Source of the DNA: Staphylococcus phage vB_SauM-UFV_DC4
Direction: 5' to 3' (one strand)
Length of the DNA stretch: 64,000 nucleotides
Sequence record: MZ779063.1
The stretch's first letter is position 1; each line of letters starts with the position of its first letter. Of this stretch, positions 25,815 to 62,219 are shown piece after piece. The position numbers and the translations under genes were made by a program. The notes below the pieces were generated by a model. That model ran no database searches. It saw nothing but the letters and a program-made list of their open reading frames with translations, and was not told where the DNA came from.

Positions 25815-25846
25815 AATTTATTTATATTTTGTTACTAACAATATAA

Positions 25847-26182: not shown

Positions 26183-26189
26183 TATTTTA

Positions 26190-45200: not shown

Positions 45201-45378
45201 TACAGAGTTGAATGCTTATCTTACTCGTTATGTATCTAACCGTAGCTGTGAAACTATTCAAGCTGAAGTTAGTGCAGATGAATACGATAAATCTCAACGT
45301 ATTGTACGTGTTAAAATTTCTGTTAAATTCAACAATGTTATTGAACGTATCTTCATTGACATTAATGTTGAAAAATAA
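42226..45378 (+). CDS. Contractile tail sheath protein, unusually long at 1050 aa
   Basis: N-terminal YGQAAYNLVNWLRSGGQAYVLRVLP resembles T4 gp18 YFMSAMNFLQYGNDLRVVRAV. C-terminal HFPIAGPRRGLVEG...KLYTSKINYI resembles gp18 WMSPAGYNRGQIL...RLYQEAINPV. High-expression codon bias. Confidence 0.85.
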   Translation: MADFMYLHPSVQTQINSYQNNYPTAEGPVTLFAADTFEKGKDGVIDFVGTEEEFIFKYGEPNYTKYGQAAYNLVNWLRSGGQAYVLRVLPKNATYSHAILNVQSRVQKDGKKVLTDANELVKIDDVKIRPTIAFVKKNNRNIEELVNEITLDRGNEQTVDGYNNNFLLLAYPNGRGESYNDLGIRLTLNTSYDTSGRTERVYNLEVLEFDEFSNVNVIDGPFLVTFDPDSISDTGESMFIEEVVNRYSKYVNIKFNLENFQNLAKEINPNVHPASIDVISGKSKVSIDGTPETFYSEKTKQSEDIHITLHRYNNKGVPVTISGNPVLNKPDFNDPVENALISLDNGMREKTFVTDSDRLSYMRDQYKTLRSDNFTEFKSLLNKIIVPGNGLFEDDAGSLPKTIKDNLVSAKLTQEDVTADINDEEAVEEELAGKFKPSEINFGGKPAGAAERLVQDYNTYFEDSNEENLSAVLSGTEEIGSLLLNEFLDNGNKLNAAYELVYKSNSGISSNPKYQADVKELRDVLAQKDQIRIFGIQHKSNILDITNDIAELRIGMKSVTNLEGMSKVLNDTETELRYVIDNLMPAVREGLPKEAVDFINTVPDGDDEDTERDLVSPEAMLNSLADKQMLVDDINLGLMEDNAANREEVFVACNEIANQLVDLINRAVSVASVYKVARAVRIAANTIYYDISIFRKNIDEMIQTRSNYTERDITLNAHQNIELAVANLNKANSKYFNTNLIDVSSPVKFLFGSDGDFSYAEDISYKDRKNSVNRELIKAYKGLIDEEITNTKAYPFDVVLDARYSNEVKFAISELAKNVRKDFVFLADTVTDRYPVSPEDAIRWRKEEFAVSSEYTAIYSQDLTYYDEYTGRDIRFTPTYRLASMIPYQAVNSGLHFPIAGPRRGLVEGHKALSWAPNEPYKEKLYTSKINYIEKDIDRTKFGAQMTSIKSDGPLSNLNNIFTLNQIKRDAETLVSDYQFELNDDETRSIMGTELNAYLTRYVSNRSCETIQAEVSADEYDKSQRIVRVKISVKFNNVIERIFIDINVEK

Positions 45379-45531: not shown

Positions 45532-46338
45532 ATGATTTTACCAAGTAAAAATCAGCGTGTGTTTGATAATAACATCGCTAAGAACAAGTGGTTCTATAAT
45601 GGACATATGAATCTTCAAACTCTTGAGTTTGATCCATTCGTAACTGGTTATTCATTCATAGTATGGACTAAGATTCCTTCTTGGGTTGAAAAACAATTCC
45701 CTGGTTTTAAAGCTATGACTCAAAAGAACTTTAAATCATTCCAAGGTTTAGAAAACATTGAAATGACTACAAACGATTATATGCATACGTTTAACGGTAA
45801 TAACTATCGTACAGCTGCTAGTATTACAAAAGGAAACACTGGTTTCCAAATGACTCACCAAGAATTCTCTGGTAGTCCAATTAAAAATATGTATCAATAC
45901 TGGGTATCTGGTATCCGTGATCCTCGTACTGGTATTGCAACTTATCCTAAAATTCATAATTTAGAATATGCTGCTAAAAACCATACAGGTGAATTATTAT
46001 ATATTCAAACTCGTCCAGATGCTAATAATACATCTAAAAATAATATTGAATTCGCTGCTTATTACACTGCAGTAATGCCTACTCGTATTTCTCTTGATCA
46101 CCATAACTACACTATGGAAACTCATGAAGAAGCACAAATTGAGCAAGACTTTGCAGGTAATATGGAAATTTCAGCACGTGTAAATGACTTTGCTAAGTCT
46201 AAACTTAATGAAATTTACAGCTTCACTGAACAAGGTATGTTTGATCCATCTGCACCTAAAACTGCTGGAGATAACTTATCTGATTTCGACTATAATAAAG
46301 GTGGAATCACTGGTTCAGGTAACGGAGATCTTAAATAA
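45532..46338 (+). CDS. Tail tube protein (268 aa)
   Basis: Immediately after the sheath gene. AAAAGGAG SD. High-expression codon bias (cgt/gct/ggt). No strong motif. Confidence 0.55.
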   Translation: MILPSKNQRVFDNNIAKNKWFYNGHMNLQTLEFDPFVTGYSFIVWTKIPSWVEKQFPGFKAMTQKNFKSFQGLENIEMTTNDYMHTFNGNNYRTAASITKGNTGFQMTHQEFSGSPIKNMYQYWVSGIRDPRTGIATYPKIHNLEYAAKNHTGELLYIQTRPDANNTSKNNIEFAAYYTAVMPTRISLDHHNYTMETHEEAQIEQDFAGNMEISARVNDFAKSKLNEIYSFTEQGMFDPSAPKTAGDNLSDFDYNKGGITGSGNGDLK

Positions 46339-46357: not shown

Positions 46358-46390
46358 TCCCCTAATACTAAATTAATAGTATTAGGGGAA
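46358..46390. terminator. Bidirectional terminator between the convergent tube gene and the - strand block
   Basis: 12-bp perfect stem tcccctaatact / agtattagggga, 9-nt loop, then atatttttg. Confidence 0.7.
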
Positions 46391-46400: not shown

Positions 46401-48566
46401 TTATTTATTAATTCTACTGTATATATGACAAAATGTTATGTCGTCTAAATTTACTGTTTCATTTAATAATCTTTCTTTCCAGTTCTCTCCAAGATCATAT
46501 ATCATTTCTGATAATACTTTTTCTGTATAATTTTGTAAAGGAACTAGTTTAGCATCATATTTACTGAATTTTCGTATATAGTTTTCATAACTTAAATCGT
46601 CAGATACATATTTAATAGATTCAAATATATAAGGTTTAAATATCATATATCTATCAAAATCCATATCATCATGAATCATCAATAATTTAGGTAAATAATA
46701 AGATTCAATAGGTACTTTAATTTCTAATCCTTGAATATTATTTTTATAATGAACTTCATATTTTAATTTTCTATCTTTCCAATCAAAATTATTAAGAGCA
46801 TAATGTATAGGTTCTTCTTTAAGGTAATAATCAATTCCATCATTACTATATGATTGAACACTATCAAACGATCTAGGATCGTTATCTGAATCAATATTAT
46901 TTAACTCATTATCTTCATTAGTCATTACATAATCTTCATATATAAAATAATAATTTTTAATATTAGGATACACTAAAGCTTTTTTATTGACATTTGAATG
47001 TTTTTTGACTGTATTTGAATTTATAATAAGAGAATCAAATAAGAAATTATTTTTGTCAGGTGTAGTTATTTGTATATCATTTTCTTTTCTAAGATAAATT
47101 TCATTGATATATTCATCTATATTCATTTCTGGAAATCTCTTATATAAACCTAATGTACATAAATTGTTATGATCTTCATGAACTTTAGCAATATAATTTT
47201 TACCATTAATATTTACTACCGCTTCTTCTTGTTTAGAATTCTTTATTTGATCATTATTAAATTTTCTTCTAAATAATATTTTGAAATCATACATTCCAGA
47301 TTCAGATAAATTTAAAGTATTCTTAACAGTTCCTGTAGTTAAAGAAAATTTATCAGATAAACTACTAACTTCTTCTATATTTGTAGTTTTATTATCTATT
47401 TTAAAAGTTTCTAAAGTTTTACCGGTTCCTTGATTATAAGAATCATTATCTATATAGAAATCTTTAATAGGTACTATAGTTCTAGTTCCTACTTTAAAGT
47501 GATTTTCTTGTTTTGAATAGAAAGGATTTTTAGCTTCAGGAACTTCAACTTCTTCTAATAATATAACGTTTATATCATTTTCTTTAGTAGAGAAGTTTTT
47601 ATCATATTCAAATTTAAATGTGTGAATTCCTTCTTCTAAATATAAAGGCGGTTCTTCAAAATATTCATCTTTAGCATCATCATATTTTTCTAATATAGAT
47701 CTAAACCATAATAAACTTTTATTCGTAGGAGTTCTAAAATAACTTCCCACATTATCTATAAATACTTTATTCACTGTACCATTATTATAATGATTTCCAG
47801 CTTTAAATCTTACTTCATAATGGGATGATTTAGGAATATTAATTTTCATTTCTAATATTCCATCTTCTATAGTCACATATCCTTTTCCTAAGAACCTATC
47901 ATAACCTGAATCTCTCTTATAAGCTCCATCAAATTCACTTTCTCTAGTTCTATAAACATCACCTAGATATGCATCATAGAATATTCTTCCATCTTCTACT
48001 AATCCATTATATATAATGCCATCTATTAATTCAGATTCTTTTAATATTTTTTGATTAAACGCATAGTCTTTAGGATAATTATTATTATCTTTATAGACTG
48101 GTGGATAAGGTTCAATTTTCACCTCACTTTCTACCAGATTGTTAAAATTTAAATCTTCATACTCAATATTACCTATATAATTGGTATCATATATTCTTTC
48201 CATTTTACCTAAGTAATTATAATATATTGTAAATAAATCATATTTTAATTCACCAATTAATTCATAAGGTCTTTCTTCATAAACTAAAACATCTTTAGTT
48301 AATTCATTTTGATTTAATATAGGATTTTCAATTCCATATTCTTTTTTAATATAGGAAGCTGATTCAAATAAATTAACCTCACCATCTTCTTTAAAAGATA
48401 ATTTTTTGTATTCATCAGAATCAAATTCTATTTTTAATAATAATTTTTCTTTCTTTTTAGTTTTAGTTGTAATCAATGGTCTATTTTCATTATCTTTAAT
48501 TTTAGTAATAACGATTTCACCATTATTATTTTTATCAATTAACTCTTCTATTCTATAAAGCTTCAT
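46401..48566 (-). CDS. Hypothetical protein (721 aa), likely a tail/baseplate component
   Basis: ORF. Last gene of the - strand structural operon containing the two giant hydrolase genes. Confidence 0.45.
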   Translation of the reverse strand: MKLYRIEELIDKNNNGEIVITKIKDNENRPLITTKTKKKEKLLLKIEFDSDEYKKLSFKEDGEVNLFESASYIKKEYGIENPILNQNELTKDVLVYEERPYELIGELKYDLFTIYYNYLGKMERIYDTNYIGNIEYEDLNFNNLVESEVKIEPYPPVYKDNNNYPKDYAFNQKILKESELIDGIIYNGLVEDGRIFYDAYLGDVYRTRESEFDGAYKRDSGYDRFLGKGYVTIEDGILEMKINIPKSSHYEVRFKAGNHYNNGTVNKVFIDNVGSYFRTPTNKSLLWFRSILEKYDDAKDEYFEEPPLYLEEGIHTFKFEYDKNFSTKENDINVILLEEVEVPEAKNPFYSKQENHFKVGTRTIVPIKDFYIDNDSYNQGTGKTLETFKIDNKTTNIEEVSSLSDKFSLTTGTVKNTLNLSESGMYDFKILFRRKFNNDQIKNSKQEEAVVNINGKNYIAKVHEDHNNLCTLGLYKRFPEMNIDEYINEIYLRKENDIQITTPDKNNFLFDSLIINSNTVKKHSNVNKKALVYPNIKNYYFIYEDYVMTNEDNELNNIDSDNDPRSFDSVQSYSNDGIDYYLKEEPIHYALNNFDWKDRKLKYEVHYKNNIQGLEIKVPIESYYLPKLLMIHDDMDFDRYMIFKPYIFESIKYVSDDLSYENYIRKFSKYDAKLVPLQNYTEKVLSEMIYDLGENWKERLLNETVNLDDITFCHIYSRINK

Positions 48567-48596: not shown

Positions 48597-50057
48597 TTAT
48601 GATAATGCACTTCCAATAGCACTGTTAGGATGAGGGTTTGCTTGAGATTTATAACCGTAAATAGTATCATCTATTTGTTGTTTAAATACTCTTCCTTTTA
48701 ACACTTGCATACTTCTTGAATACTGATTTTGCATATTAATTTGAGCTTTATCTATAATTGATAGTTGATCTCTTCTAATACCTGCTAAACAATCAATATA
48801 AGAAATTAAACCTGTATTAAATTTCATACGTTGGAATGATTTTGATGCCATTAAGTTAGGGTACATATCTCTTACATTTAGTGAAACTGTTATTTCTCTA
48901 GGGAAACCATCTGCTGTCCATGTACCTTCTTCTCCACGAACTATATTCATTGATGTTATAATACCTGTATGACATTCAAATCTACCAGGACAGTTTGCTC
49001 TAACAATGAATGGTTGTTTATATGAGAAAATAGAATCTTGTAAAGGTAAAGCTAATACCAATAATGACATGAACGGTAAATATACATTTTCAAAAATAGA
49101 TTGAGGATCTCCATACGCACTATAGAATTTAAATTCTAAGTTATAAGTACGGTCAAAAGTTGAGTTCATCCATACATCAGGATAATACATTGATGCTCCA
49201 TCTAAATTTTCCATAAAGTTACCAACTATACCACCTAATACTGGCATATTTGCAACCATATCATTAATGCTATCTTTAATAGATCTTGTAATTTTACCTA
49301 AAATAGAAGCTCCTCCAATACGAGCCATTTCTTTTTCTTCACGTATTTCTTGGTTTTTATTATTAATCTGAGAAGCTATATCAGATTGATTATACTCATG
49401 CATTGCTGATTCAGATACACTAGTAGCTTTATCCGCATAATAAGCTAAACCATAGTTTTTGTCATCTAAAGATCCACCTAAATCAAATGATCCTTTTAAT
49501 CCCATAGATGCATGTAATTGACTTCCCATGGTTTGTACGTATTTATAATATTCACTCATTTTAGGTTCAAAACTAACCATACGTCCATCTTTAGTATTAC
49601 CTATACCAACTAATCCAGCTGTAGTATTTGCCAATCTATCTAAACCTTCTCCAAAACTCCATAATTTACCTTCACCCGGTTTACCAAATAGTTTACCGTT
49701 CAATTTAGGCATACCTGGCATTATAAATACTAAAGGTAAGTCTAATTCAAATGTTCTTTTATATATTCTTCTATTAGGGTCATCTAAACTAGAGTAGTAC
49801 ATAGGCATTCCAAATACATCTAGTTCACCTTTAACATTTCTCAATTTAGTTTTATCGGAAGCACCATATTCAGAAATATTACGAGTATTACCTGTAGCAT
49901 CTTTAAATACACCTAAATCATTCTGACTTGGATCATATTCTTGGAAATCATAATCACCTTTAGTTTCATCAGGTTTAGGTATTAAAGCAATATCGTCATC
50001 ACTAATATCTAAAGGTTTCGTACTACCTTTTTCATTTTTATCTTTTTCTTCTGCCAA
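48597..50057 (-). CDS. Hypothetical protein (486 aa), likely a tail/baseplate component
   Basis: ORF downstream of giant protein B. Confidence 0.45.
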   Translation of the reverse strand: MAEEKDKNEKGSTKPLDISDDDIALIPKPDETKGDYDFQEYDPSQNDLGVFKDATGNTRNISEYGASDKTKLRNVKGELDVFGMPMYYSSLDDPNRRIYKRTFELDLPLVFIMPGMPKLNGKLFGKPGEGKLWSFGEGLDRLANTTAGLVGIGNTKDGRMVSFEPKMSEYYKYVQTMGSQLHASMGLKGSFDLGGSLDDKNYGLAYYADKATSVSESAMHEYNQSDIASQINNKNQEIREEKEMARIGGASILGKITRSIKDSINDMVANMPVLGGIVGNFMENLDGASMYYPDVWMNSTFDRTYNLEFKFYSAYGDPQSIFENVYLPFMSLLVLALPLQDSIFSYKQPFIVRANCPGRFECHTGIITSMNIVRGEEGTWTADGFPREITVSLNVRDMYPNLMASKSFQRMKFNTGLISYIDCLAGIRRDQLSIIDKAQINMQNQYSRSMQVLKGRVFKQQIDDTIYGYKSQANPHPNSAIGSALS

Positions 50058-50188: not shown

Positions 50189-53100
50189 TTATTTACCTGA
50201 AAATACTGGTATAGCAGATCTCACGTCAATATTGAATTGATCTCCATAAGCTCTATTAATAGCTTCTTGAAGATCAGAATCTCCTTGTGAAGGTCCATTA
50301 TTATTACCTGGATTGATAATAATAGTACTTCCGTTTCCATTATTACCACCTGTACCAGGATTATATGGATCATTAGGATTAACAATGACATTACCATTAT
50401 TATTACCATTATTGCCATTAGCTCCATTGTTTCCATTTTGTCCATTATTTCCAGTATTGCCGTTGCTACCATTATTTCCATTTGCACCGTTAATAATATC
50501 TGGATTATTTTGTAAATTATCTTTAATGATTCTATCAATTTCTTTATTAATTTCTTTGATAATTACATTACCTTTAGAATCAACTAAGTCACCTTTATTA
50601 TTGATAGTCGTGTTATTAAAGATATTATCACCTTTATTAATAGTAGTGTTATTACCTTTAAATGACATTTTTCTAAGTTGATCTAACATCTTAGCTGTAT
50701 TTTTATCAATATTACTTGTATGCTTAGTAATTTCATCTAAATCCATACGTTTTTGCTTATCAACTTTCATAGGTCCATTTTTGTAAGATACTGTAGAATT
50801 GTTATAATTATTGGTAATATTATAAATATTTCTTACAGTATTATTATCGCCTTGAATTGTTTGATGAGTAGTAGAATTGTTGGTTGTAGTTCCTGGTGAA
50901 GTATAGTTATTATTAACTATAGTAGAATTAGTATTTCCACCATTATTAATTACAGTACTTCCGCCAGAAGAACTTCCTGATCCTTGTTGTTGAGATTGAT
51001 TTGGCATTGATGAAGATGACCCATCTTGACCATTTGCACCAGATTGACCATCAGAACCACTAGATCCTGATGAACCTGAAGAACCAGAGTCTCCTGATTC
51101 CCCATCTTCTCCATCAGACCCTGATGAACCTGATTCAGATTTCTTCTTACCAGCTTCAGATTTAAGCTTTTCTTGTTGTTCTTGGTCTATTTTTTTGGCT
51201 TCTTCGTAATCAATACCATATATTTGAGCGTAACGTTTCATTAAACGGTCATTTAATGCTTCTTGTTCTTCTTCATCCATACGGTTATCGTCACGTCCAG
51301 TAATGGATCCGTACCAAGTACCATTTTTGAAACTATATTCTGAAGCTCCTGGTGAATCTCCTGATTCTGAACTTTCATCACTTGAGCTTCCGCTATCAGA
51401 ACCTCCTTCACCATATCTCATATAACCATCAATTCCCCATTTAGGGTTTTTATATTTATTAGCACTGTTAATAACAACACCATCAACACCATTAGCCTCT
51501 ACTTGTTTACCTCCACCAATGTACATTGTAACGTGTTCTATATTATCACATAAAATAATGTCACCTGGTTTAAGGTCTTTGGGGCTTTTAGCTTTAATTT
51601 TCTTAAAAGGCGTATCTCCATTCCAGAATGAATGAGTAGTGGCGTTCTTATCCATATCTAAACCAGCTTTTACATAAGCTCTAGCTATCAAACTAGAACA
51701 GTCAAAAGAATTAGCTCCTTGTCTGTTAGGTTGTGAATATTTTGCACCAACCTGTTTCTTAGCCCATGCAACAGCTTTATCAATTTTGGCTTTTTGACTT
51801 CCGCCACCGCCACCGCCTCTTTGTATAGGTGGATTACCTTTAATTATTCCTGTTCTACGTGAGCTTTTGTTTTTTCCTGATGTAGATGAAACCATGTTAG
51901 AAAATTTACTAATATCATTTGTATCAGCTATAACTGAACCGGCCCCACCTCCGCCAGCTCCTCCACCTTTTTTCTTAGTAGATTTTTTATCAGAACCACT
52001 GAATTTTTTGATAAAAGCATTACCAGAAGAAATACGTGACCCTAAAGCAGGAACACCGGCTCTTTCATATTTACTTACCCAAGAAGCAGCTGCTTGTTCT
52101 ACTGTTTTAGTAGTTTTAAGGTGAGATAAGGCAGCACTTTCTGATCCACTTAATTCTTTCCATAAATAATCCAATTGTAAGTCTAAATCAGACCATTTTT
52201 TACCTTTTTCTTTAGCATATTTCATTAAACCTTGTCTACGAGTATTATCCCATTGAGCAATACCAATACCATAACCAGAAATAGCACTATTAGCTTTTGC
52301 TTCATCAAATTTGGCATCTCCTTGAACACGATCAGCTTTCATTCCAGATTCATGTGCAAAGTTACCTAAAACACCAGCAACTTGTTCATTAGAAAGTCCT
52401 TTATCTTTAAGGAAATTCCAAATTTTCTCTGCACCTTCACCTTCAATTCCAGCTGCATCACTTCCTGAAGATGATGCTGAACTTGATGAAGATGATCCAG
52501 ATCCGGCCATAAATCCAGCCATGATATCATTCATCATACCGCCTAATTTATCGAACCAATCACCAATAGTATTAACTACTTCTCCTCCTGGTTCATTTAT
52601 ATCTAGTTTAGATTTTTTCTTTTTCTTCTTACTTAATAAAGAATAGAAAGGTGACATACGCATCATAGTCTCTGCTAATTTCTTAGGTGTTTTCTTAAGT
52701 TTACTCATGAGATTTTTAGGCATTAATTTATTCATTTGATGACCAATTCTACCCATTACAGATAATGGAGAATCTTTCATAGCTCCATCTACATCTTTCT
52801 TGATAGAATCTCTAGTTTTTCCTGCTGACTCTTCTACTTGTTTTTTAGCATCTTTACTAGCTTTATCTGACATGCCTTGCATTTCTGCTATTTCTTTTTT
52901 AGCTCTATCAGATGCTTCGCCTTCAATTCCTTCTTGATATGAACTTAATTCTTCTTTACTAGCTTCAGTCATTTCTTTACTCATATTTCCCATTTCTTCT
53001 TCATGACTAGAGAATTTATCTTTTAACCATCCCCAACCAGATTTAATTAATCCAGTTCCTCCTTGAAGAAGCATAGAAGTCATACCAGTTAAATTACTTA

Positions 53101-56077
53101 AGCCTTTACCAGCTAATGCCAAAGGAGCCATCAATAACATAGAAGCTCCGCCAACAACTTTTTTAATCAATCCTCCAAAGCCACTTGATTTTTCTTCCAT
53201 AGCCATATCAGTTTGATCTCCAAAGCTTTTAGCCATACCTGTAGTTTTCTGAACCATATTCATACCTAAACCAAATGCCGGTTTTACAATTGATTTATAT
53301 AATCCCATTCCAGCTAATCCCAATAAAGGAGTAGAAGCTAATAATGGATTATCTTTAATAAAACCACCTATAATTGAAGATTTATCTAAAGAACCATTCA
53401 TTTTAGTATCAACTGAAGGATCAACTGCAAAATTTTCTCCACCAGGTTGAGTTGAATCTAATTTTTCTTGTTCTTTTTTAGTCTTAGAAGGGTGATCATT
53501 GAATCCAATAATACTACCTAATGTCTTAATTGGGTGTTTTAAAGATTCAATAGGGTTGGCTATAGTTCTAATAATGTCTGGGCCAGCTAATGCTAATGAT
53601 GCAATTTGTCCAACTACAGGAATAGCATTTACACCAACACGAGCACCTACTTTAGCTCCTGCTTTAAGTAATCCTTTACCTATAGCTTTTTTAGCACCTT
53701 TTCCAGCAGCCATTTTAGCAGCTCTAGCTTTAAGTTTCCCTTTAAGTCTACTACCTGCACCGGCCATTAAAGCACCACCGGCAGCAAATTTACCAGTTAA
53801 AGAACCACCCATACTAGTTATTTTACCACCTAATTTAGTATTAGATAATTTACCTATTTTTTCTTTAACAAGGTCTTTACCTTTATTTTTATATTTATCA
53901 AATTTTTCTTTGACATGTTTATTACTATCAATAAGATCTTGAACGTCTCCTACTTTATCTGCAAAATCTTTATCATCTGAAGTGTCAGAAGCTTTCGTTT
54001 GTCCATTTTCTAAAGTTTGTTCATTAGGAATAATAGTAGATCTATTATCCTCATCATTAATATTATCATTTCTTCTTGTACTATCAGATTGTCTACTTTG
54101 ATTTGGACTAGAAGATGTTGTAGAAGTATTTTTATTTAAAGTTTGTTCTCTAGGATCTATTTCTCTAGAAACATTTTCATTAGGTTGATTTACATCACTA
54201 ATTATACCACTTGAATTTTTATCACTAGAATTACTACTATATCTTTGTTCAGGTATTTTATTATTTATTCTAGATACAATTTGTTTAATTTCACTTATAT
54301 CTTTATTAACGATATTAAAGCTAATATTATCATATACTGTATCTTTATTAGTGCTAAGAATACCGCTTCTATTTTCATTATTTAATTTAGAAGTAATATT
54401 TTTAGAAATACCTTTTCTTTGATTTTCATCATTAAGAGCATTTATAGAACTACTAGATAATCTCTTCTTAATATCTTTAGATTCTTTATTTAATTGCATT
54501 CTAGTTTTAGTTAAACTAGTTTTAGCTTCTTTATCATTAAATAATTTATCTAGAAGAATATTAAATGGATCATTAGGATCATTTGATTTAATTTGATCAA
54601 GTTCATTGCTTTTATTAATATTTTTAGAAATGATTTCTTTAATCTTAGATGTAGCTTTATTTTTATTATCTTCATTACTGAAAAGATCAATACCCATTTC
54701 AGAAGCTATATTTTCAAATTCTTTAGTAAAACTAGATTCTTTGATAGTTTTATTAACTTTTTCTTCTATATCATCTTTAATAGACTTGGAAGTTTTAAAT
54801 GAACCTGAATCATAGTCATAATGAATTTCTTGTCCATCTTCTGAAGTTAAACCAACTATTTTAGATAGATAACCAGGTATAACTGTATTAAGCGTATTAT
54901 GAGTTTCCACATCAAAAGCAACTTTTTGATGTCTGTCTTTTCTGTTAGCAGTTGATATACCACCAGTTACACTATCAAATATTTTGTCAATTAATTTACT
55001 TTTACCTGATTTAACATCTTCAAGAAGATCATCTCTTCTTTTATCTCTTTTTCTTTGTTTATCACCATTATCATTATCACTAAAAGGACTAAATTTCTTA
55101 TTAGCAAATTTACCAACAGCTTTTTCTATGAAAGTATTTTCATTATTAAGAAAATCAAAAGCTTTACCTTTAGCTACATCAACTAAACCTAAACTTTTAA
55201 TACCTTGTTTTTTAGAACCAATAACTTCTTTAAGTAATTCAGTTCCTTGTTTTTTAATAAAGTCTTTAGCTTTATCTTTGAATCCTTCTTCTTGAGATCC
55301 TTCTAATATACTTGATAAAGTTATATTAGATAAGAATAGATCTTCTAATGAATTACTATTTTTAATTTCAGATATATTCTTAATTTTAGTATTCTGTCTA
55401 ATAGCATTACTAGTTTGAATTAAACCATTTAAGTTTTGGAACATACTTTCTCTAATACTATCGTTAGCTTCTCTCATTAAATTAAGATTATCAATCATAG
55501 AAGTAAATCCGGTAGTATTTATTTGAGAAAGATTAGATACAGAAGAAGTTAATAGAGCTGTAGATTTAGCAGAAGAACCACCATCATTAATAACTGTTGT
55601 AGAAGATACTATTTTAGATTTATTATCATCTTCTTCATCAAAGTCATCAAATTCAAAATCTCCATCTAAAGAATCATCTGTGTCAGAATCCATATCTGAA
55701 AAACTATCATCAAAACCAAAATCTTCAAAATCACCACCGATATCCATACCCATGTTATTGAAGTCTTTTAGTGATCCTTTATCTTGGATAGTTTCTCCAG
55801 TTTTAAAGGTATTTTTAGTAGATTCTAAAGCTTCTTTAGATAAATCTTTAGTAGATTCACTTATCTTTTGTAATTGTTTTTTCTTTTTATTCTTTAATTC
55901 TTTGACAGCTTTTAATGGATTATTTTGATCCATCATACGTTTCATGTCATTAGACTTCATTTTATTTAAATTTTTGTTAAATTCAATATCTATATATTTT
56001 CTAGAAGATTTAGAGGAGGAGTTATTTCTAAACTCCTTCTCTATCTTGCTAGTGTTAAATTTCTTATCTCTAGCCAA
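50189..56077 (-). CDS. Giant tape-measure-like tail protein B (1962 aa) carrying a phage tail lysozyme-like domain and an NlpC/P60 (Cys-His) peptidase domain
   Basis: Lysozyme-like block GVLGNFAHESG...GIGIAQW at about 52040..52460. NlpC/P60 block FDCSSLIARAY...GDIILCDNIEHVTMYIGGG at about 51480..51760. Gly/Ala/Lys-rich GKxxGK segment. Asn/Gly-rich collagen-like C-terminus. Confidence 0.8.
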   Translation of the reverse strand: MARDKKFNTSKIEKEFRNNSSSKSSRKYIDIEFNKNLNKMKSNDMKRMMDQNNPLKAVKELKNKKKKQLQKISESTKDLSKEALESTKNTFKTGETIQDKGSLKDFNNMGMDIGGDFEDFGFDDSFSDMDSDTDDSLDGDFEFDDFDEEDDNKSKIVSSTTVINDGGSSAKSTALLTSSVSNLSQINTTGFTSMIDNLNLMREANDSIRESMFQNLNGLIQTSNAIRQNTKIKNISEIKNSNSLEDLFLSNITLSSILEGSQEEGFKDKAKDFIKKQGTELLKEVIGSKKQGIKSLGLVDVAKGKAFDFLNNENTFIEKAVGKFANKKFSPFSDNDNGDKQRKRDKRRDDLLEDVKSGKSKLIDKIFDSVTGGISTANRKDRHQKVAFDVETHNTLNTVIPGYLSKIVGLTSEDGQEIHYDYDSGSFKTSKSIKDDIEEKVNKTIKESSFTKEFENIASEMGIDLFSNEDNKNKATSKIKEIISKNINKSNELDQIKSNDPNDPFNILLDKLFNDKEAKTSLTKTRMQLNKESKDIKKRLSSSSINALNDENQRKGISKNITSKLNNENRSGILSTNKDTVYDNISFNIVNKDISEIKQIVSRINNKIPEQRYSSNSSDKNSSGIISDVNQPNENVSREIDPREQTLNKNTSTTSSSPNQSRQSDSTRRNDNINDEDNRSTIIPNEQTLENGQTKASDTSDDKDFADKVGDVQDLIDSNKHVKEKFDKYKNKGKDLVKEKIGKLSNTKLGGKITSMGGSLTGKFAAGGALMAGAGSRLKGKLKARAAKMAAGKGAKKAIGKGLLKAGAKVGARVGVNAIPVVGQIASLALAGPDIIRTIANPIESLKHPIKTLGSIIGFNDHPSKTKKEQEKLDSTQPGGENFAVDPSVDTKMNGSLDKSSIIGGFIKDNPLLASTPLLGLAGMGLYKSIVKPAFGLGMNMVQKTTGMAKSFGDQTDMAMEEKSSGFGGLIKKVVGGASMLLMAPLALAGKGLSNLTGMTSMLLQGGTGLIKSGWGWLKDKFSSHEEEMGNMSKEMTEASKEELSSYQEGIEGEASDRAKKEIAEMQGMSDKASKDAKKQVEESAGKTRDSIKKDVDGAMKDSPLSVMGRIGHQMNKLMPKNLMSKLKKTPKKLAETMMRMSPFYSLLSKKKKKKSKLDINEPGGEVVNTIGDWFDKLGGMMNDIMAGFMAGSGSSSSSSASSSGSDAAGIEGEGAEKIWNFLKDKGLSNEQVAGVLGNFAHESGMKADRVQGDAKFDEAKANSAISGYGIGIAQWDNTRRQGLMKYAKEKGKKWSDLDLQLDYLWKELSGSESAALSHLKTTKTVEQAAASWVSKYERAGVPALGSRISSGNAFIKKFSGSDKKSTKKKGGGAGGGGAGSVIADTNDISKFSNMVSSTSGKNKSSRRTGIIKGNPPIQRGGGGGGSQKAKIDKAVAWAKKQVGAKYSQPNRQGANSFDCSSLIARAYVKAGLDMDKNATTHSFWNGDTPFKKIKAKSPKDLKPGDIILCDNIEHVTMYIGGGKQVEANGVDGVVINSANKYKNPKWGIDGYMRYGEGGSDSGSSSDESSESGDSPGASEYSFKNGTWYGSITGRDDNRMDEEEQEALNDRLMKRYAQIYGIDYEEAKKIDQEQQEKLKSEAGKKKSESGSSGSDGEDGESGDSGSSGSSGSSGSDGQSGANGQDGSSSSMPNQSQQQGSGSSSGGSTVINNGGNTNSTIVNNNYTSPGTTTNNSTTHQTIQGDNNTVRNIYNITNNYNNSTVSYKNGPMKVDKQKRMDLDEITKHTSNIDKNTAKMLDQLRKMSFKGNNTTINKGDNIFNNTTINNKGDLVDSKGNVIIKEINKEIDRIIKDNLQNNPDIINGANGNNGSNGNTGNNGQNGNNGANGNNGNNNGNVIVNPNDPYNPGTGGNNGNGSTIIINPGNNNGPSQGDSDLQEAINRAYGDQFNIDVRSAIPVFSGK
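51128..51351. repeat. Module shared with giant A (copy in giant B), encodes GASEYSFKNGTWYGSITGRDDNRMDEEEQEALNDRLMKRYAQIYGIDYEEAKKIDQEQQEK...
   Basis: About 88% nucleotide identity to 56594..56820. Confidence 0.75.
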
Positions 56078-56100
56078 TTATTAGTTCCACCTCCTGCTAT

Positions 56101-59100
56101 CTATTTCAATTCTTCTAATAAACGGTCTAATTCTTTAGTAGATGCTAATGTATTTTTATCTATATTAGCTAACATTCTTACTAAATCATCTGAATACCAT
56201 AATTTTTCATAATCATAAGTATAACCAGAGTTACCATTTTCAATTTTAGAATTTTTATGATTGTTTACAATTTTATTATAATGGTTAGTTACTCGGTTTT
56301 TACCTTTTATAAATTCTTTATTCACATTTTCATTATTAATGACATTACTTTGTCCATTTTGATAATTGTTATTAACTGTTTTAGTATTTTTACTACCTTG
56401 ATTGTTAACAGCATTATTACCTCTATTAATATTAGAAAAACCACTATTAGCTAATGTTGGTAATTGGAATACCGGAGGATTTCCGATATTCTTATTATTA
56501 GTTATTTGAGATCTTGATTCTTGTGGTTTAGATGGCGATGCTGAAGAATCAGAACTATCTGAAGATTCTTCATCTCCAGAATCTTCACTTCCAGATCCTG
56601 ATGAACCTGATTCAGATTTCTTCTTACCGGCTTCAGATTTTTTCTTTTCTTGTTGTTCTTGATCGATCTTTTTAGCTTCTTCATAGTCAATACCGTATAT
56701 CTGAGCATAACGTTTCATTAATCTATCATTTAATTCTTCTTGCTCGTCTTCATCCATACGGTTATCATCACGACCAGTTATTGAACCATACCAAGTACCA
56801 TTTTTGAAACTATATTCTGAAGCTCCTGGACCTGATTCACTATTTCCTTCTTTATCATCTTCATCACTTTTAGAAGCAGAAGAACTAGATCCTCCTCCGC
56901 CAATAGTCTCTTTAATTGTACTTGCTAAAGCTTTCTTACCTTTACTATTCGGATGAACACCTAAACCATCATTTTCAATCATATCAGAACTGGCTTTACT
57001 ATTCCAGTCTATTACTTTTGAATCTGAACTTTCAATAGCTTTATTAGTTGCTTCAATAATATCAGAAATATCAGATCCTTTTCTCTTTTCAGGATCTACA
57101 TACGTATTAACAAAGTATACATCTGCTTTGTCATACATATCTTCTATTTCTTTAACATTACCTGTAGTTAATCCTCCATTAGTACCTAATTGCACTATAA
57201 TTGCATTTTTATCTTTATTGTATTTCTTTTTGTTGGATTCTAATACATTTTTACCATTAGGCGAAGGACCTCCACTTGAATAAGTTCTTGAAGGAACTGC
57301 ATTAATTTGAATTTTACTAACTGATTTTCTTATTTCAGAAGCAGCTCCTGCACCTATGGAGTCACCTACCATAAATACTTTATTGTAGGATTTACCTCCA
57401 CCGCCTCCACCAGTTACCGTTTTAGCTATTTTTCTAATGGCTTCAGGAGTATTACTGAATGGAAATCTATCTTTAATAAAATTATCAACTCGTTTTTTAA
57501 TCTTCTTAATATTGTATATATCTGAATTGTAAATCTTAGTTTTTTCTTTTTCTGCCTTTTCTTCAGTTTTCTTCTGATTATTTTCTAATTTATTTAAAAG
57601 AGCTCTATCATTTCTTACTTCTTTAGCTCTTTGTCTTTTAGCTTCTTTGACTTCTTGTGATTTATAACCACCGTCTACCATTTTTACAGTAGGATCAAAT
57701 GCAGCTCCACCTTTTTTACCTTTTTTAGATTTTCCAGCTTTACTACCTTTGTCTTCATCACTACCGCCTTTAGAACCTTTTAAAGGAGCTTTAATCCAAG
57801 GTGATGGATCTACAGAGTTTTTCTCCATAGCCCAACCGCCTGGTTTACCTTTATTTATTTGGAAGTGAAGGTGACCTGAACCAGCAGTATTAGCACCAGT
57901 GTTACCTGAGATTGCTATAACTTGTCCAATTTTAACTTTATCGCCCTTTTTAACTAATTGTTTAGTTAAATGCATATACGTACTATAGATGTTACCAGGT
58001 GATTTAACTTGAACAATATTACCTCCACCCGGATCGGTGTTTGATCTAATAACTGTACCTTCTACCATACATTTAACTTTTTGACCTGGAAGCATACCTA
58101 TATCAATACCATAGTGCTTTCCTCCGTTAAATGATAAACCAGAATAGTTACCATATGGTTGCCAAATCGCAGCACTTGGTATTTTTTTCATCCAAGCACC
58201 AACTGTGCCATCTGGTATTTGATTAATAGAACCAGGTACAATTTTCTTAGTATTCATATCTACTTCGCCAGCTTCACCTGAAACTTCAGGTTCACCGTCT
58301 CCACCAGAATCGCCACCACTGGAATTTTTCATTTTAGACATTGCAACAACCATTTCTTCCATTTTAACTAAGAAACGACTGAACCAATCTCCGATTTCTC
58401 CTTTACCATATTTAGAGAAATCAATTCCGCCTTTAGCTATTTGATACAAACTACCTAGAGGTGTACTCATGAACATATCTTTTTGAATATCTTCTTCAGC
58501 TTTTGGTCCTGATTTCATTTTATTATCAGTAATTGTTTTAAACATATCTCCACCAACTTTAGCTAGTGGGAACATAGGAGATGCTCTAAACATTAGTTTA
58601 GAAGTACTTAATATTAATCTACCTAAACCTGTTTGATCTTCAGTATGTTTTTCTTCTTTACTTTTAGCTTCATCTTCTATTTTATCACCAGGATGTTCAC
58701 CAATTCCGAAGAAACTACCTAATGTTTTAATAGGGTGTTTTAATGATTCAATAGGATGTTTAATAGTCTTGATAATATCAGGAGCCCACATTGCTGCACC
58801 AATTACTGGTCCAACAAATGGTATGAATGGTAATGCTGTTTTCAATCCTGCTTTTAATGCAAATTTTCCTCCAGCTTTCATTGCACCTTTACCGAATAAT
58901 TTATTTTTAGCTTTACCTATAGCACCAAAGGCTTTTCCTCCAAGTTTCTTAGCTCCACCAAATAAACCTTTACCGATAGATTTAGCTCTGTTAAAACCTT
59001 TAGAAGCAAATTTACTTATTCCTTTAGTTGCAGCTGAAGCATTCTTTTTATTAAATATTTTAGATATACCACTTTTAGCTACTTTCCCTATAGTTTTACC

Positions 59101-62073
59101 GGCACTTAATCCTTTTTTAACTAATCCTGCACCTTTACCTATAACCATTTTACCTAAAGATTTAACAGAAGGTAATTTATCTTTAGCAAATTTTCCAATA
59201 CCTTTAAATACATTACCTATTTTTTTAGGAGCACCTTTAATACCTCTAAATAATTTTCCTAATCCAAATTTTCCAGCTATATTTTTAATTCCGCCACCTA
59301 TTTTACCTAACATGCCAGGCATACTAGTAAAGAATTTACCTATTCCGCTTGGTAATAATTTAGATAATAATTTAGGTCCAAATTTAGCAGCTAAGAATCC
59401 TCCAGCACCCAACATTGCAGCGTTACCTAAGAATCCTCCAGCAGATGCTAAGAATCCTTTCTTACCAGGTTCTAGATCTTTTTTACCATTTTTACCTTTC
59501 ATTAATGAACCTAATACAGCTGCAGAAGTTCCAGCAAATAAAACTGGTCCCATTTTACTAAAATCAAGCATACCGTTCATCATTTTTTTAGCACCAATGG
59601 ATTTTTCAGCTTCTCCACCTTTTCCAAAGTTTATATTACCTCTAATGGATTCAGCAATTTCTTTTTTATTGGAACCTGTTATTTTAGACATAACATCTTC
59701 CCCAGATTTTCCTGCATCGGCAGTTGAAAGGCCTTGTTTCATTCTTTCTAAAGCTCCAGCATCTTGAGAATCTTCCATATCTTTTTTAATAGTTGGATCA
59801 TTGCCAAAAGCAGTTTTAACTAAATCGATTATTGTACTCTTAGCTTTCTTTTCTTTTTCCTCTCTAGTTAAATCATCTATTGTTTTGCTTGGTTCTTTAG
59901 TGTAAGTATCTTTATTAGCCTCATTATTATTAATTGATAATTTATTTAAACCAGGAATATTCTTCATTAAATCCATTAATGGATTATTATCTATAATACT
60001 AGATTGATTTATATTCTGATAAGGATATTCATCATCTTGATCTGGTTGAGTATTTTCTTGAGTTGAATTAACTCTACTAGATGCAGAAGAAACCATATCT
60101 TTAATAGCACTTGTAGGATTTTCTTTGTATTCTTTAGCTTTATTAACTGCATTAGAAAGACTATTTAATTTATCCATTACAGAAGCATGAGCTTCATTAC
60201 TTCCATTATTTCCACTTAGAATAGGGAAATTTTTACCTTTATCTATGATATTATTGATCGTATTAACTTTATTATTAATAAATTCTTTATTATTATTAAT
60301 ATTATCATTACTGAAATTATTGTCTAATTTTCTTTCTATTTCTAAGAAAATATTTTTAATTTCTTCTAAATCACTATTTTCCCAGTTAATATTACCAAAA
60401 TCTTTAATCTGATTAATATTATCATTATTATTAGATCTAGAATAAGTCGAATTAGATTTATTTAAACCTTCTATTTCAGTAAATGCCATTATTCTTGAAT
60501 TATCTTTTTTATCAAGTGTTTTTGAAATAGATTTCTTAATATTGAATAAATCAGTATTAAATTTAGCTGAATTCTTTTCAAACACTTCAGATAATGACTC
60601 AGTATTAACATTTATATTTTTCTGATTAACTATTTCTTTAAGTTTAGAAGTTTTTTGGATAGGTTTGTCTATTTTAGTTAATTCAGCTAAAACTTCTTTA
60701 GTTCTTTCTTCATCATTATCTAATTTAGATAATAATTCTTTACCTAAATAAGTATCTTTAAAATTAAATAAAGAATCTGATTTAATCTTATCCAAGTCTT
60801 TTTTCTTAGCCGAACCTCGATTTTCCCAAACGCCTTTTCGGTAATTATAGATACTACCTAATTCAGCATTATCTGCTAATCCGCCTGAACGACCTTCTTT
60901 TTTGGCTATCAAATTACCTTGAAGTCTAGATAAGAAGTCTGGTATAACTTTATTAATAGACGTATGAGATTCCATATCAAATTGAACAGGAGTATCTTTT
61001 TTACGTTTATTTTTTAGAGAAATACCGCCTTTACCATCACCTAATAACTCTTCTTTAAATTGATCTAATCTACCTGAAAGAGCATTTCCTAAATTAGATA
61101 TATACTTATTATCATTGCCAGTTAATCTTTCTAAACCTTTAGTAAGTTTACTATCTTCATCAAGATTTCTATTAATAAGCATAGAACCTATATTTTGTGG
61201 ATCAAATCTTTTATTCAATCTATTAAATATATTTTTATTATCGCCTTCAGGATCATAACCACCAATATCACCGTAAAGAAGTTTATTAAATGCAATTTTA
61301 GCTCCTTGAGTTGCAGCAAATTCAATAGGATTTTTAGCTACACCCATCAGCATTGATTTAAGTTGGTCTCCGGACATCATACCCATTAATAAATTTTCAG
61401 GATTAGTTTTCTCATCCAAATATTTTAATAAACTAATATTACCATTCAATATAGAATGTAATTTACTTTGTTTATTTCTTTTGGTATTTTCTTCCATTAT
61501 TGTATTTTGATATATACCATCCTGTATTGTACTTAAATTTGATAAAGCTGAATCTACGAGACTGTTAGTTGCTTGCATTGATAAAGAATAATTATTCAGT
61601 GCAATATTTGTTCCAACAAATCCTCTTTGATTTATCTCAGCTAAATTATTCATTGCTACTAGAGGTGAATTTGTTATTTTAGATTTCTTTTTATCTGATA
61701 AACTAACAATTTCAGATTTAGTCCCATCAGGATTATCAATATATTCTGTTACTGATTCATATTCAGGTTTTTCATTAGATAATTTTTCATTACTACTTGA
61801 AAAAAGATCATTTTCATTAGATTTATTTTTTAGTGTTTTTAATAAATCATTAGTAGAACCTTTAACTTCAGAAAATTTCTTTAATCTTCTTTCATCATTG
61901 TTGAATAATTTTAAACCTGAATCTCCCACTATAGCATCTAATGATGGATTAGATTTTATAAACGCATTAAAAAGAATACGACCAGTATTTTTAGAAGCAT
62001 TTTTAATGACAGTTGATTTATTATTATTTTCTAATTGTCTAATATTCTTTTTATTTCTATTATTTTTAGCCAA
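56101..62073 (-). CDS. Giant tape-measure-like tail protein A (1990 aa) carrying an M23 (LytM) peptidase domain and an SGNH/GDSL esterase domain
   Basis: TTG start after AGGGGTGA. M23 block HYGIDIG...YMHL...GHLHFQ at about 57850..58240. SGNH blocks FMVGDSIGAG, LGTNGG and DGLGVHP at about 56940..57400. The N-terminal ~600 aa and the IIKTIKHPIESLKHPIKTLGS motif are paralogous to giant B. Confidence 0.8.
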   Translation of the reverse strand: MAKNNRNKKNIRQLENNNKSTVIKNASKNTGRILFNAFIKSNPSLDAIVGDSGLKLFNNDERRLKKFSEVKGSTNDLLKTLKNKSNENDLFSSSNEKLSNEKPEYESVTEYIDNPDGTKSEIVSLSDKKKSKITNSPLVAMNNLAEINQRGFVGTNIALNNYSLSMQATNSLVDSALSNLSTIQDGIYQNTIMEENTKRNKQSKLHSILNGNISLLKYLDEKTNPENLLMGMMSGDQLKSMLMGVAKNPIEFAATQGAKIAFNKLLYGDIGGYDPEGDNKNIFNRLNKRFDPQNIGSMLINRNLDEDSKLTKGLERLTGNDNKYISNLGNALSGRLDQFKEELLGDGKGGISLKNKRKKDTPVQFDMESHTSINKVIPDFLSRLQGNLIAKKEGRSGGLADNAELGSIYNYRKGVWENRGSAKKKDLDKIKSDSLFNFKDTYLGKELLSKLDNDEERTKEVLAELTKIDKPIQKTSKLKEIVNQKNINVNTESLSEVFEKNSAKFNTDLFNIKKSISKTLDKKDNSRIMAFTEIEGLNKSNSTYSRSNNNDNINQIKDFGNINWENSDLEEIKNIFLEIERKLDNNFSNDNINNNKEFINNKVNTINNIIDKGKNFPILSGNNGSNEAHASVMDKLNSLSNAVNKAKEYKENPTSAIKDMVSSASSRVNSTQENTQPDQDDEYPYQNINQSSIIDNNPLMDLMKNIPGLNKLSINNNEANKDTYTKEPSKTIDDLTREEKEKKAKSTIIDLVKTAFGNDPTIKKDMEDSQDAGALERMKQGLSTADAGKSGEDVMSKITGSNKKEIAESIRGNINFGKGGEAEKSIGAKKMMNGMLDFSKMGPVLFAGTSAAVLGSLMKGKNGKKDLEPGKKGFLASAGGFLGNAAMLGAGGFLAAKFGPKLLSKLLPSGIGKFFTSMPGMLGKIGGGIKNIAGKFGLGKLFRGIKGAPKKIGNVFKGIGKFAKDKLPSVKSLGKMVIGKGAGLVKKGLSAGKTIGKVAKSGISKIFNKKNASAATKGISKFASKGFNRAKSIGKGLFGGAKKLGGKAFGAIGKAKNKLFGKGAMKAGGKFALKAGLKTALPFIPFVGPVIGAAMWAPDIIKTIKHPIESLKHPIKTLGSFFGIGEHPGDKIEDEAKSKEEKHTEDQTGLGRLILSTSKLMFRASPMFPLAKVGGDMFKTITDNKMKSGPKAEEDIQKDMFMSTPLGSLYQIAKGGIDFSKYGKGEIGDWFSRFLVKMEEMVVAMSKMKNSSGGDSGGDGEPEVSGEAGEVDMNTKKIVPGSINQIPDGTVGAWMKKIPSAAIWQPYGNYSGLSFNGGKHYGIDIGMLPGQKVKCMVEGTVIRSNTDPGGGNIVQVKSPGNIYSTYMHLTKQLVKKGDKVKIGQVIAISGNTGANTAGSGHLHFQINKGKPGGWAMEKNSVDPSPWIKAPLKGSKGGSDEDKGSKAGKSKKGKKGGAAFDPTVKMVDGGYKSQEVKEAKRQRAKEVRNDRALLNKLENNQKKTEEKAEKEKTKIYNSDIYNIKKIKKRVDNFIKDRFPFSNTPEAIRKIAKTVTGGGGGGKSYNKVFMVGDSIGAGAASEIRKSVSKIQINAVPSRTYSSGGPSPNGKNVLESNKKKYNKDKNAIIVQLGTNGGLTTGNVKEIEDMYDKADVYFVNTYVDPEKRKGSDISDIIEATNKAIESSDSKVIDWNSKASSDMIENDGLGVHPNSKGKKALASTIKETIGGGGSSSSASKSDEDDKEGNSESGPGASEYSFKNGTWYGSITGRDDNRMDEDEQEELNDRLMKRYAQIYGIDYEEAKKIDQEQQEKKKSEAGKKKSESGSSGSGSEDSGDEESSDSSDSSASPSKPQESRSQITNNKNIGNPPVFQLPTLANSGFSNINRGNNAVNNQGSKNTKTVNNNYQNGQSNVINNENVNKEFIKGKNRVTNHYNKIVNNHKNSKIENGNSGYTYDYEKLWYSDDLVRMLANIDKNTLASTKELDRLLEELK
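56594..56820. repeat. Module shared with giant B (copy in giant A)
   Basis: Aligned by eye to 51128..51351; about 85 aa of near-identical protein. Confidence 0.75.
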
Positions 62074-62151: not shown

Positions 62152-62219
62152 AAAAAAAAAATAAAATATTCACCCTAACACAAATAATCCAATTAAGGAC
62201 TAAATGTGTTAGGGTGAAT
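62152..62219 (-). terminator. Strong intrinsic terminator on the - strand between the 222-aa gene and giant A
   Basis: Stem ttcaccctaacaca / tgtgttagggtgaa at 62169-62218 with 22-nt loop. The - strand then reads a 15-nt U-rich run (plus strand 62152-62166 is A10TAAAA). Confidence 0.7.

Follow-up and report, generated by a model that had tools for sequence, protein, structure and literature searches.

The textbook view of tail-length determination assigns one tape measure protein (TMP) to each phage. In the genome of Staphylococcus phage vB_SauM-UFV_DC4 (DC4; sequence record MZ779063.1), within the stretch of 64,000 nucleotides (nt) that was analysed here (the window), two adjacent tape-measure-like genes of near-equal length are present, referred to as A (1962 amino acids, aa) and B (1990 aa). 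A conserved co-length pair of this kind raises the question of whether two rulers could template one tail, and whether several folded enzymes could be housed in one lumen. An earlier note, made by a model from the DNA letters, had drawn attention to the pair, and we found both open reading frames (ORFs) on the minus strand, exactly where it had placed them (Table 1).

That these phages have two TMP candidates is already known: Korn et al. reported "two potential tape measure proteins", described both as having alpha-helical content and transmembrane segments, and gave the tail length as 233-237 nm (bioRxiv 10.1101/2020.12.14.422802). Both genes are annotated as TMP in the SA1 record, and a literature search for a precedent of two TMP genes in one phage returned nothing relevant beyond Korn et al. 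We favour, with a probability of about 0.5, an account in which A and B would be a duplicated pair of lytic TMP-type proteins, loaded together and carrying complementary enzymes. What appears to be new here is the full three-block paralogy with its invariant core, the single-copy relatives and gp182 synteny, and the finding that A is probably of the ancestral type. The SGNH domain of B and the subfamily to which it belongs, the restriction of its catalytic residues to one clade, and the exchange of enzyme cassettes between clades also appear to be new.

A shared scaffold and its single-copy relatives

The BLASTP alignment of A with B returned three shared blocks. The first (A146-608/B112-583; 25% identity, E 9e-11) bears out the common N-terminal architecture described in the earlier note; the second (A771-879/B1037-1151; 43% identity, E 2e-20) is Gly/Lys rich and hydrophobic and contains the PIESLKHPIKTLGS motif; the third, absent from that note, covers about 240 aa towards the C terminus (A1570-1801/B1745-1985; 52% identity, E 3e-41). 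The three blocks are colinear and recur in five other genomes (Madawaska, SA1, LY01, Machias, and AH12). The alignments thus indicate that A and B are tandem paralogs along the entire scaffold, the C-terminal part included, and that their paralogy extends well beyond the one short module to which, as the note had allowed, it might have been confined.

The Gly/Lys-rich region expected in both proteins was confirmed by composition, and it extends over some 100 aa in A as against some 300 aa in B. The shared motif is likewise present in both A (DIIRTIANPIESLKHPIKTLGS) and B (DIIKTIKHPIESLKHPIKTLGS), although A features an arginine at the position that had been given as isoleucine or lysine. In B, the motif KHPIESLKHPIKTL (58720-58761) is a 21-bp tandem duplication encoding the heptads KHPIESL and KHPIKTL, with an 85% DNA match between the copies. 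A second hydrophobic segment occurs in A at aa 970-988, just downstream of the 53438..53977 range.

The C-terminal block includes a 62-aa core with at least 85% amino acid identity across all 12 A and B proteins compared, and the A and B families align at this core with an E of 4e-63 (hhalign). At the DNA level, the core is 80-91% identical between paralogs and between clades, and the remainder of the paralogs is about 25% identical. Since the core protein was kept while its DNA diverged, strong purifying selection on a shared interaction is indicated; this interaction is plausibly docking at the baseplate centre. Recent gene conversion was considered as the origin of the near-identical core and was rejected on the same DNA and protein figures. 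As a separate observation, the residues right after the core co-vary within genomes, which may hint at an older exchange.

The gene encoding a 486-aa protein downstream of A was used as an anchor for locating counterparts of the pair in other jumbo phages. This protein has homologs in 283 phage records (tblastn; PHROG 20401) and matches phiKZ gp182 (BLASTP, E 2e-15), which forms a hexameric spacer ring in the baseplate, where the tube initiator and the hub lie on either side of it (PMC13250141). In AR9 (g204, 1925 aa, annotated "tail tape measure protein"), BpSp (gp263, 1797 aa) and phiR1-37 (g083, 2553 aa), one gene is found directly upstream of the gp182/g205 homolog, and apparently one, annotated as fragments, occupies the same spot in the Listeria phage LPJP1; in phiKZ, gp181 (2237 aa, a tail-associated endolysin) is directly upstream of gp182. 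The comparison with related genomes that the earlier note had called for, in order to see whether one or two genes are ancestral, therefore returns a single gene in AR9, BpSp and phiR1-37, and probably in LPJP1.

A, B, AR9 and BpSp have in common, at the same position (about aa 360-430), the block VAFD..T...VIP..LSKI...Y.Y..G.F. The match to AR9 has an E of 3e-8 for A (pairwise; hhalign probability 94%, E 9e-8) and of 1e-4 for B (pairwise), and the B family matches AR9/BpSp with an E of 3e-5 (hhalign). A and B are homologous to AR9 g204, itself a TMP by annotation only, and to BpSp gp263, and an FIPxVG-type hydrophobic segment occurs in AR9 too (FIPGVG, aa 1263-1281). Both genes are present in all nine sequenced Staphylococcus jumbo phages, where a tblastn search with the first 1160 aa of B found two places per record and no other records, and the duplication was found in none of their sequenced relatives. 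Furthermore, a search of IMG/VR with the N-terminal 619 aa of B retrieved no relatives, and a word-indexed search of 5.8 billion proteins with aa 2-1160 retrieved only three Staphylococcus phage clusters. Taken together, the shared block, the position beside the gp182 homolog and the single copy in relatives argue that the pair arose in this lineage by tandem duplication of a giant lytic TMP-type gene that is single in the rest of the group; the ancestral gene corresponds to AR9 g204 and, in its position, to phiKZ gp181.

The LPJP1 gene encodes a VgrG3-like_C glycosidase, then NlpC/P60, then a core-like segment, and is colinear with A. Its N-terminal block matches A (E 3e-14) better than B (E 5e-7), and AR9 is likewise closer to A; of the 62-aa core, LPJP1 has a weak counterpart, and none was detected in AR9 or BpSp. 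If anything, A is probably the ancestral-type copy and B the derived one, and, with LPJP1 and AR9 both closer to A, the GenBank labels ("tail lysin" for A and "tape measure" for B) look arbitrary.

Enzyme domains and cassette exchange

The divergence between the paralogs is concentrated in the enzyme cassette that separates the membrane segment from the core. The earlier note was right in assigning different payloads to the two proteins: Pfam finds Phage_lysozyme2 and NlpC/P60 in A and M23 in B, and the SGNH domain of B is recognized by PDB and fold matches. In A, the muramidase-type Phage_lysozyme2 domain scores 123.9 bits against a gathering cut-off of 28.2; its GNFxxES motif, with the putative catalytic Glu, is invariant in six A orthologs, and in the PDB it weakly matches the N-terminal domain of phi29 gp13. 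The NlpC/P60 domain (42.9 bits against a cut-off of 23) has its nearest PDB matches in 8er5, the diffocin hub-hydrolase 8v3w and CwlO, and its catalytic Cys (FDCSSL) and His (HVT(M/I/L)YIG) are kept in all clades. The same holds for the zinc ligand motifs HxxxD (KHYGIDIG) and HxH (HLHFQ) of the M23 domain of B, which scores 76.9 bits against 28.7. Because 5kqb ("Peptidase M23"), LytM and lysostaphin head its sequence matches in the PDB (E 1e-22 to 1e-17), this domain is predicted to be, probably, a Gly-Gly endopeptidase.

Pfam, run on the SGNH segment of B alone, gave sub-threshold matches only, to Lipase_GDSL and DUF459; although below the Pfam cut-off, the domain is real. Its best sequence match among solved structures is the C-terminal domain of Staphylococcus aureus OatA (PDB 6WN9/6VJP, E 5.5e-10). 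The AF2 model (predicted local distance difference test score, pLDDT, 62, with 70-89 in the core) has 6wn9/6vjp as its top Foldseek matches, with a template modeling (TM) score of 0.70, and further matches to SGNH esterases and transferases, including TesA, CE3 and CE2. The putative catalytic residues are Ser1572 (GDS), Asn1632 (GTNG) and His1707 (DGLGVH).

An exhaustive HMMER search (E <= 0.001) found 196 relatives of the SGNH domain, and the domain context was taken from the 73 closest representatives, in which the domains carried in the same polypeptide include Phage_lysozyme2 (48/73), M23 (13/73), CHAP (12/73) and the membrane domain Acyl_transf_3, AT3 (only 6/73). One relative cluster that was looked up comes from Candidatus Saccharibacteria, and a word-indexed search of 5.8 billion proteins with the SGNH domain gave a single marginal match. 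The DC4 domain carries the subfamily signatures GDSIxxG and D-GLGVHP. The closest relatives outside phage isolates are two metagenomic proteins, 1518 and 1662 aa long, from contigs that reach 130 kb in length; both have the SGNH domain at the N terminus (38-44% identity) and no other Pfam domain.

Pfam found no AT3 match in B, and the residue at Ser+4 is Gly in B (GDSIGAG) versus Asp in S. aureus OatA (GDSVMVD). In OatA this Asp coordinates water and favours transfer over hydrolysis, and OatA-mediated O-acetylation makes the S. aureus glycan resistant to lysozyme (PMC9487903). The B domain is best read as a predicted peptidoglycan O-acetyl esterase, whose subfamily, to judge from the matches, is related to the OatA C-terminal domain and is usually fused to the muramidase family present in A. 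Since this subfamily is normally found fused to PF18013 (Phage_lysozyme2), a Rosetta-stone link connects A to B.

The catalytic Ser and His are found only in the DC4/Madawaska clade: the corresponding residues are GDD/GIT in LY01 and GDE/GYM in SA1, Machias and AH12, with no catalytic His. The four wall-degrading activities claimed in the earlier note are therefore present as domains in DC4 but cannot be attributed to the group as a whole, the SGNH activity being predicted in the DC4 clade only. Moreover, with its catalytic residues lost in most clades, the esterase step cannot be essential to the conserved function of the pair.

This loss might also be taken to mean that one copy is a redundant or decaying duplicate without a function of its own, a very improbable explanation that the data disfavour. 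In every genome examined, A and B alike have an unbroken ORF, with protein divergence exceeding 40%; close orthologs have ratios of nonsynonymous to synonymous substitution rates (dN/dS) of 0.13-0.16 in A and 0.15-0.17 in B; and the catalytic motifs of the M23, lysozyme and NlpC/P60 domains are kept in all clades. Both copies are thus maintained under purifying selection and are predicted to be functional.

Gene B of DC4 and that of LY01 share 92-97% identity at aa 1-1200 and 29-59% at aa 1300-1800 (aa ~1200-1800 of LY01 B being set against 56700-58470 of the window), and the M23 part of LY01 B (aa ~1200-1500) is about 76-85% identical to Machias. It follows that LY01 B is a mosaic, in which the enzyme cassette was exchanged by recombination between clades. 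A payload that recombines in this way, as a host-range module would, is consistent with an alternative use of the two proteins, in which each tail would hold a homo-oligomer of either A or B and two virion subpopulations would provide a broader staphylococcal host range. Equivalent scaffolds of matched length could each support a normal tail, and the Gly-X-Y tracts described below suggest A homotrimers. We consider such alternative use unlikely, however, because the usual fusion of the SGNH subfamily to the muramidase family of A argues for one site of action, and the two genes, 23 nt apart behind one terminator, have no obvious switch.

Possible rulers and passengers in the tail lumen

What both copies retain is the scaffold, made up of an N-terminal block, a Gly/Lys-rich hydrophobic segment that carries the PIESLKHPIKTLGS motif, and the near-invariant core; A appears to keep the ancestral order of glycosidase followed by NlpC/P60, and B combines a lysostaphin-type M23 domain with an OatA-related SGNH domain. 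In the account that we favour, A and B would be expressed from one late transcription unit, at a low level owing to their TTG starts, and both would be loaded into the lumen of the tail tube, where their C-terminal cores would be anchored to the centre of the baseplate, close to the gp182-like spacer. Upon sheath contraction both would be expelled and would make complementary cuts in staphylococcal peptidoglycan, the M23 domain in the pentaglycine bridge, NlpC/P60 in the stem peptide and the PF18013 muramidase in the glycan; phages of the DC4 clade would in addition use the SGNH esterase to strip the 6-O-acetyl groups that render the S. aureus glycan lysozyme resistant. The hydrophobic Gly-rich segments would enter the membrane and form a conduit for DNA.

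In this scheme the near-equal total length would be kept because both proteins must fit the same tube. In the six genomes considered, the landmarks of A and B are offset by up to 265 aa, and the total lengths differ by just 28-81 aa; matched totals despite internal offsets are compatible with a constraint on overall length. In PALS_2, A is annotated from an internal ATG (1915 aa), and its ORF reaches the same TTG as in DC4 (13749-13903 of the PALS_2 sequence), so that the annotated difference in length is an annotation artefact.

A more specific arrangement, possible but advanced here tentatively, is that A and B are co-packaged in one lumen, for example as an A trimer and a B trimer, and constitute a two-component, co-length, ejected "wall-breaching kit". 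De-O-acetylation by the SGNH domain would be followed by the PF18013 muramidase, with M23 acting alongside, a sequence of activities found elsewhere in one polypeptide and here split over two.

Several observations weigh against the account outlined above. Neither A nor B is in the DC4 proteome, a shallow one of 15 proteins, or in the low-coverage table of SA1 obtained by liquid chromatography-tandem mass spectrometry (LC-MS/MS); low copy number could be the cause of this absence. Similarly, phiKZ gp181 is without mention in the 2026 phiKZ structural atlas, with 0 text matches (PMC13250141). The folded enzyme domains of several chains, of 15-20 kDa each, are hard to fit in the lumen of a tube, and, as reported above, LY01, SA1, Machias and AH12 have lost the catalytic Ser and His of the SGNH domain. 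The length relations add to these difficulties: phiKZ has a protein of 2237 aa and a tail of 184-200 nm, versus about 1975 aa and about 235 nm in the Staphylococcus phages, which implies that protein length does not simply track tail length in this class. At 1.5 A per residue, 1962-1990 aa correspond to 294-298 nm versus a measured tail of 233-237 nm, and agreement is reached only after subtraction of the enzyme cassettes of about 370-455 aa, a post hoc fit. Finally, the C-terminal tail specific to A contains a 9-bp tandem repeat and two Gly-X-Y tracts, at aa 1650-1688 (13 triplets) and aa 1864-1893 (10 triplets). Runs of at least five triplets are found in every A ortholog and in none of the B orthologs, AR9 or BpSp, and they give a weak hint that A may form its own trimers and not mix with B.

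The Gly-X-Y tracts, being in A alone, also fit an explanation with one ruler and one passenger, in which a single copy sets the length and nucleates the tube and the other is an accessory ejected lysin that has kept the scaffold only for loading into the lumen and expulsion. A would be the ruler candidate as the ancestral-type copy, nearer than B to the single LPJP1/AR9 gene, and B as the annotated TMP. The first 110 aa or so point in the same direction: no similarity was detected there between A, B and the outgroups (A versus B, z -0.3), and the segment is conserved among the orthologs of each copy, which suggests different head-proximal partners. On the other hand, a mere passenger would not be expected to keep the near-invariant core and the membrane motif, to be under equally strong purifying selection, or to match the other copy in total length despite large internal offsets; we therefore regard this explanation as doubtful.

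The failure of length to scale with the tail between phiKZ and the Staphylococcus phages might further suggest that neither protein is a ruler, both being baseplate-associated virion lysins while another protein sets the tail length. Consistent with this, phiKZ gp181 has been reviewed as a baseplate cell-puncturing lysin (PMC5380687), and the TMP models of PHROG and Pfam gave no match to the scaffold, the TMP-labelled PHROG matches falling on the enzyme domains alone. Nevertheless, the phiKZ atlas gives the spike, hub and spacer to gp164, gp163.1, gp101 and gp182, so that the lumen remains as a place for gp181 (PMC13250141). The pair also appears to have the lytic-TMP architecture of T5 pb2, with a long low-complexity or helical N-terminal part, a Gly-rich hydrophobic segment and lytic domains; related genomes annotate no other TMP candidate, and homology searches identified neither copy as a known virion protein other than a TMP. 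A role for both proteins outside length determination is, on balance, improbable.

The locus and its comparison with known systems

The region 50189-62073 aligns over its full length with the Staphylococcus jumbo phages PALS_2, S6, Madawaska and MarsHill at 95.6-97.9% identity (megablast); DC4 and its relatives are PBS1/AR9-like jumbo phages. Translated gene B is 100% identical to UFVDC4_00260, and the DC4 paper names the 1962-aa gene "tail lysozyme" and the 1990-aa gene "tail tape measure protein" (PMC10638138). Both genes start with TTG, about 9 nt 3' of a Shine-Dalgarno site (AGGAGGTGG before A and AGGGGTGA before B), and both are downstream of a hairpin terminator, which the Madawaska record annotates at the same place; B and A are 23 nt apart. 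The upstream proteins of 222 aa and 305 aa match no Pfam or PHROG family and resemble neither AR9 g201 nor AR9 g202, and no upstream synteny with these AR9 genes was found. They give no sign of a tail-assembly chaperone pair with programmed frameshift, although no search aimed at a frameshift was made and not every myophage has such a pair. A B-A fusion by readthrough or frameshift was excluded, the genes being in different frames, with two stop codons preceding the A start in the frame of A. A sigma-70 promoter scan gave fewer matches than in shuffled sequence and was hence uninformative, and tRNA and Rfam scans of the window found nothing.

Table 1. Features of the A-B locus (positions of the window)
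Feature	Position	Strand	Description
Gene A (UFVDC4_00259)	50189..56077	-	1962 aa; Phage_lysozyme2 + NlpC/P60; annotated "tail lysin/lysozyme"
A N-terminal shared block	54254..55642	-	aa 146-608; contains VAFDVETHNTLNTVIPGYLSKI at ~aa 385
A Gly/Lys tract, hydrophobic segment and motif	53438..53977	-	tract aa ~701-813; segment aa 814-832; motif PDIIRTIANPIESLKHPIKTLGS; BLASTP, composition/hydropathy
A Phage_lysozyme2 (PF18013), muramidase-type domain	52001..52432	-	aa 1216-1359; Pfam E 7e-36
A NlpC/P60 cysteine peptidase domain	51455..51799	-	aa ~1427-1541; Pfam E 5e-11 (aa 1455-1541)
A C-terminal conserved core	51158..51355	-	aa 1575-1640; PGASEYSFKNGTWYGSITGRDD...RLMKRYAQIYGIDYEEAKKIDQEQQ
A-specific C-terminal tail	50399..51130	-	two proline-free Gly-X-Y tracts; Pfam Collagen E 5.8e-7
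Gene B (UFVDC4_00260)	56101..62073	-	1990 aa; M23 + SGNH; annotated "tape measure protein"
B N-terminal shared block	60325..61740	-	aa 112-583; contains VQFDMESHTSINKVIPDFLSRL at ~aa 363, common to AR9 g204
B Gly/Lys tract, hydrophobic segment and motif	58714..59676	-	tract aa ~800-1078; segment aa 1079-1097; motif PDIIKTIKHPIESLKHPIKTLGS; BLASTP, composition/hydropathy
B Peptidase_M23, lysostaphin/LytM type	57847..58119	-	aa 1319-1409; Pfam E 1.5e-21
B SGNH domain	56899..57381	-	aa ~1565-1725; PDB match, AF2 model/Foldseek
B C-terminal conserved core	56635..56832	-	aa 1748-1813; near-identical to A core
Intrinsic-terminator-like hairpin	62152..62218	-	TTCACCCTAACACA...TGTGTTAGGGTGAA + T run; closes the gene upstream of B
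gp182-like spacer gene	48597..50057	-	486-aa virion protein, directly downstream of A; homolog of phiKZ gp182 and AR9 g205

With the tail sheath gene (42226-45378) about 5 kb away, A and B lie inside the tail/baseplate module, beside central baseplate genes. The gp182-like spacer gene is uninterrupted in the window and interrupted in relatives, and looks like a hot spot for introns or mobile elements: in Machias it has two exons (23766-26883) and a transposase-like ORF inside, for which the annotators' HHpred note gives CasX, and in AR9 it has three exons (15791-18126) and two small ORFs inside. Downstream of the spacer gene, 46401-48566 (-) encodes a 721-aa protein that is kept in Staphylococcus jumbo phages and is matched by neither Pfam nor PHROG; to judge by its location, it may be a further, hub-like component of the baseplate centre. 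Between this gene and the convergent gene 45532-46338 (+), a hairpin with a perfect 13-bp stem (46358-46389), next to which each strand has a T run, resembles a bidirectional terminator. Elsewhere in the window, a giant tail fibre is probably encoded by a 2662-aa ORF (8924-16912, -), for which several PHROG families of tail, minor-head and host-range adsorption proteins gave matches, and a 998-aa ORF (1871-4867) matches families overlapping with those of the former; the DC4 proteome list contains a 998-aa "Tail fibers" protein, UFVDC4_00220.

The pair bears on how jumbo phages breach the thick, cross-linked, O-acetylated staphylococcal wall. If A and B are indeed co-packaged in one lumen as the two-component kit, DC4 would be the first tailed phage shown to have a tail built around two different TMPs, and its predicted SGNH esterase, unlocking the muramidase on lysozyme-resistant peptidoglycan, would be a phage counter-measure to OatA-mediated lysozyme resistance; the domains may be of use against S. 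aureus. This significance is bounded by the fact that the pair had previously been noticed and that every mechanistic step past gene content is inferred.

Among known systems, the phi11 Tal (Gp44) is a staphylococcal phage tail-tip protein with a peptidase-type domain and a C-terminal SGNH/GDSL domain, and the 6-O-acetylation of N-acetylmuramic acid (MurNAc) matters for phi11 adsorption (PMC4876445). The resemblance is one of description only, and, unlike in B, the carrier is a Tal and not a TMP and its SGNH domain is carbohydrate-esterase-like (PDB 2WAO). With the SGNH domain of S. aureus OatA (6VJP/6WN9), the GDS, GTNG and His blocks of B align; B differs in being without AT3 acetyl supply, in the Gly at Ser+4 and in block V, D-GLGVH versus DGIH, and it is more closely related to esterase-type domains that occur fused with lysozyme and M23 hydrolases.

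The phiKZ gp181, listed as a putative trimer (PMC5380687), resembles the pair in being encoded by a giant virion lysin gene immediately upstream of gp182, with the lytic domain towards the C terminus. However, it is a single gene with one glycosidase domain, from a phage of a Gram-negative host, and it is likened to the pair by position and not by scaffold sequence. AR9 g204, BpSp gp263 and the LPJP1 gene share with the pair the position upstream of the gp182/g205 homolog, the VAFD..VIP..LSKI block, the FIPxVG-type segment and a lytic domain in the C-terminal third, and, for AR9 and BpSp, a size of 1797-1925 aa. Different from the pair, each is a single gene, the glycosidase is T6SS_VgrG3-like_C and not Phage_lysozyme2, and neither M23 nor SGNH is present. 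In the lytic TMPs of small phages, among them T5 pb2 and that of S. aureus phage phiIPLA35, a single protein combines a ruler scaffold, a membrane-active hydrophobic segment and one or more muralytic domains. T5 and phiIPLA35 have one TMP gene, whereas in DC4 the corresponding function would be spread over two co-length paralogs with four domains.

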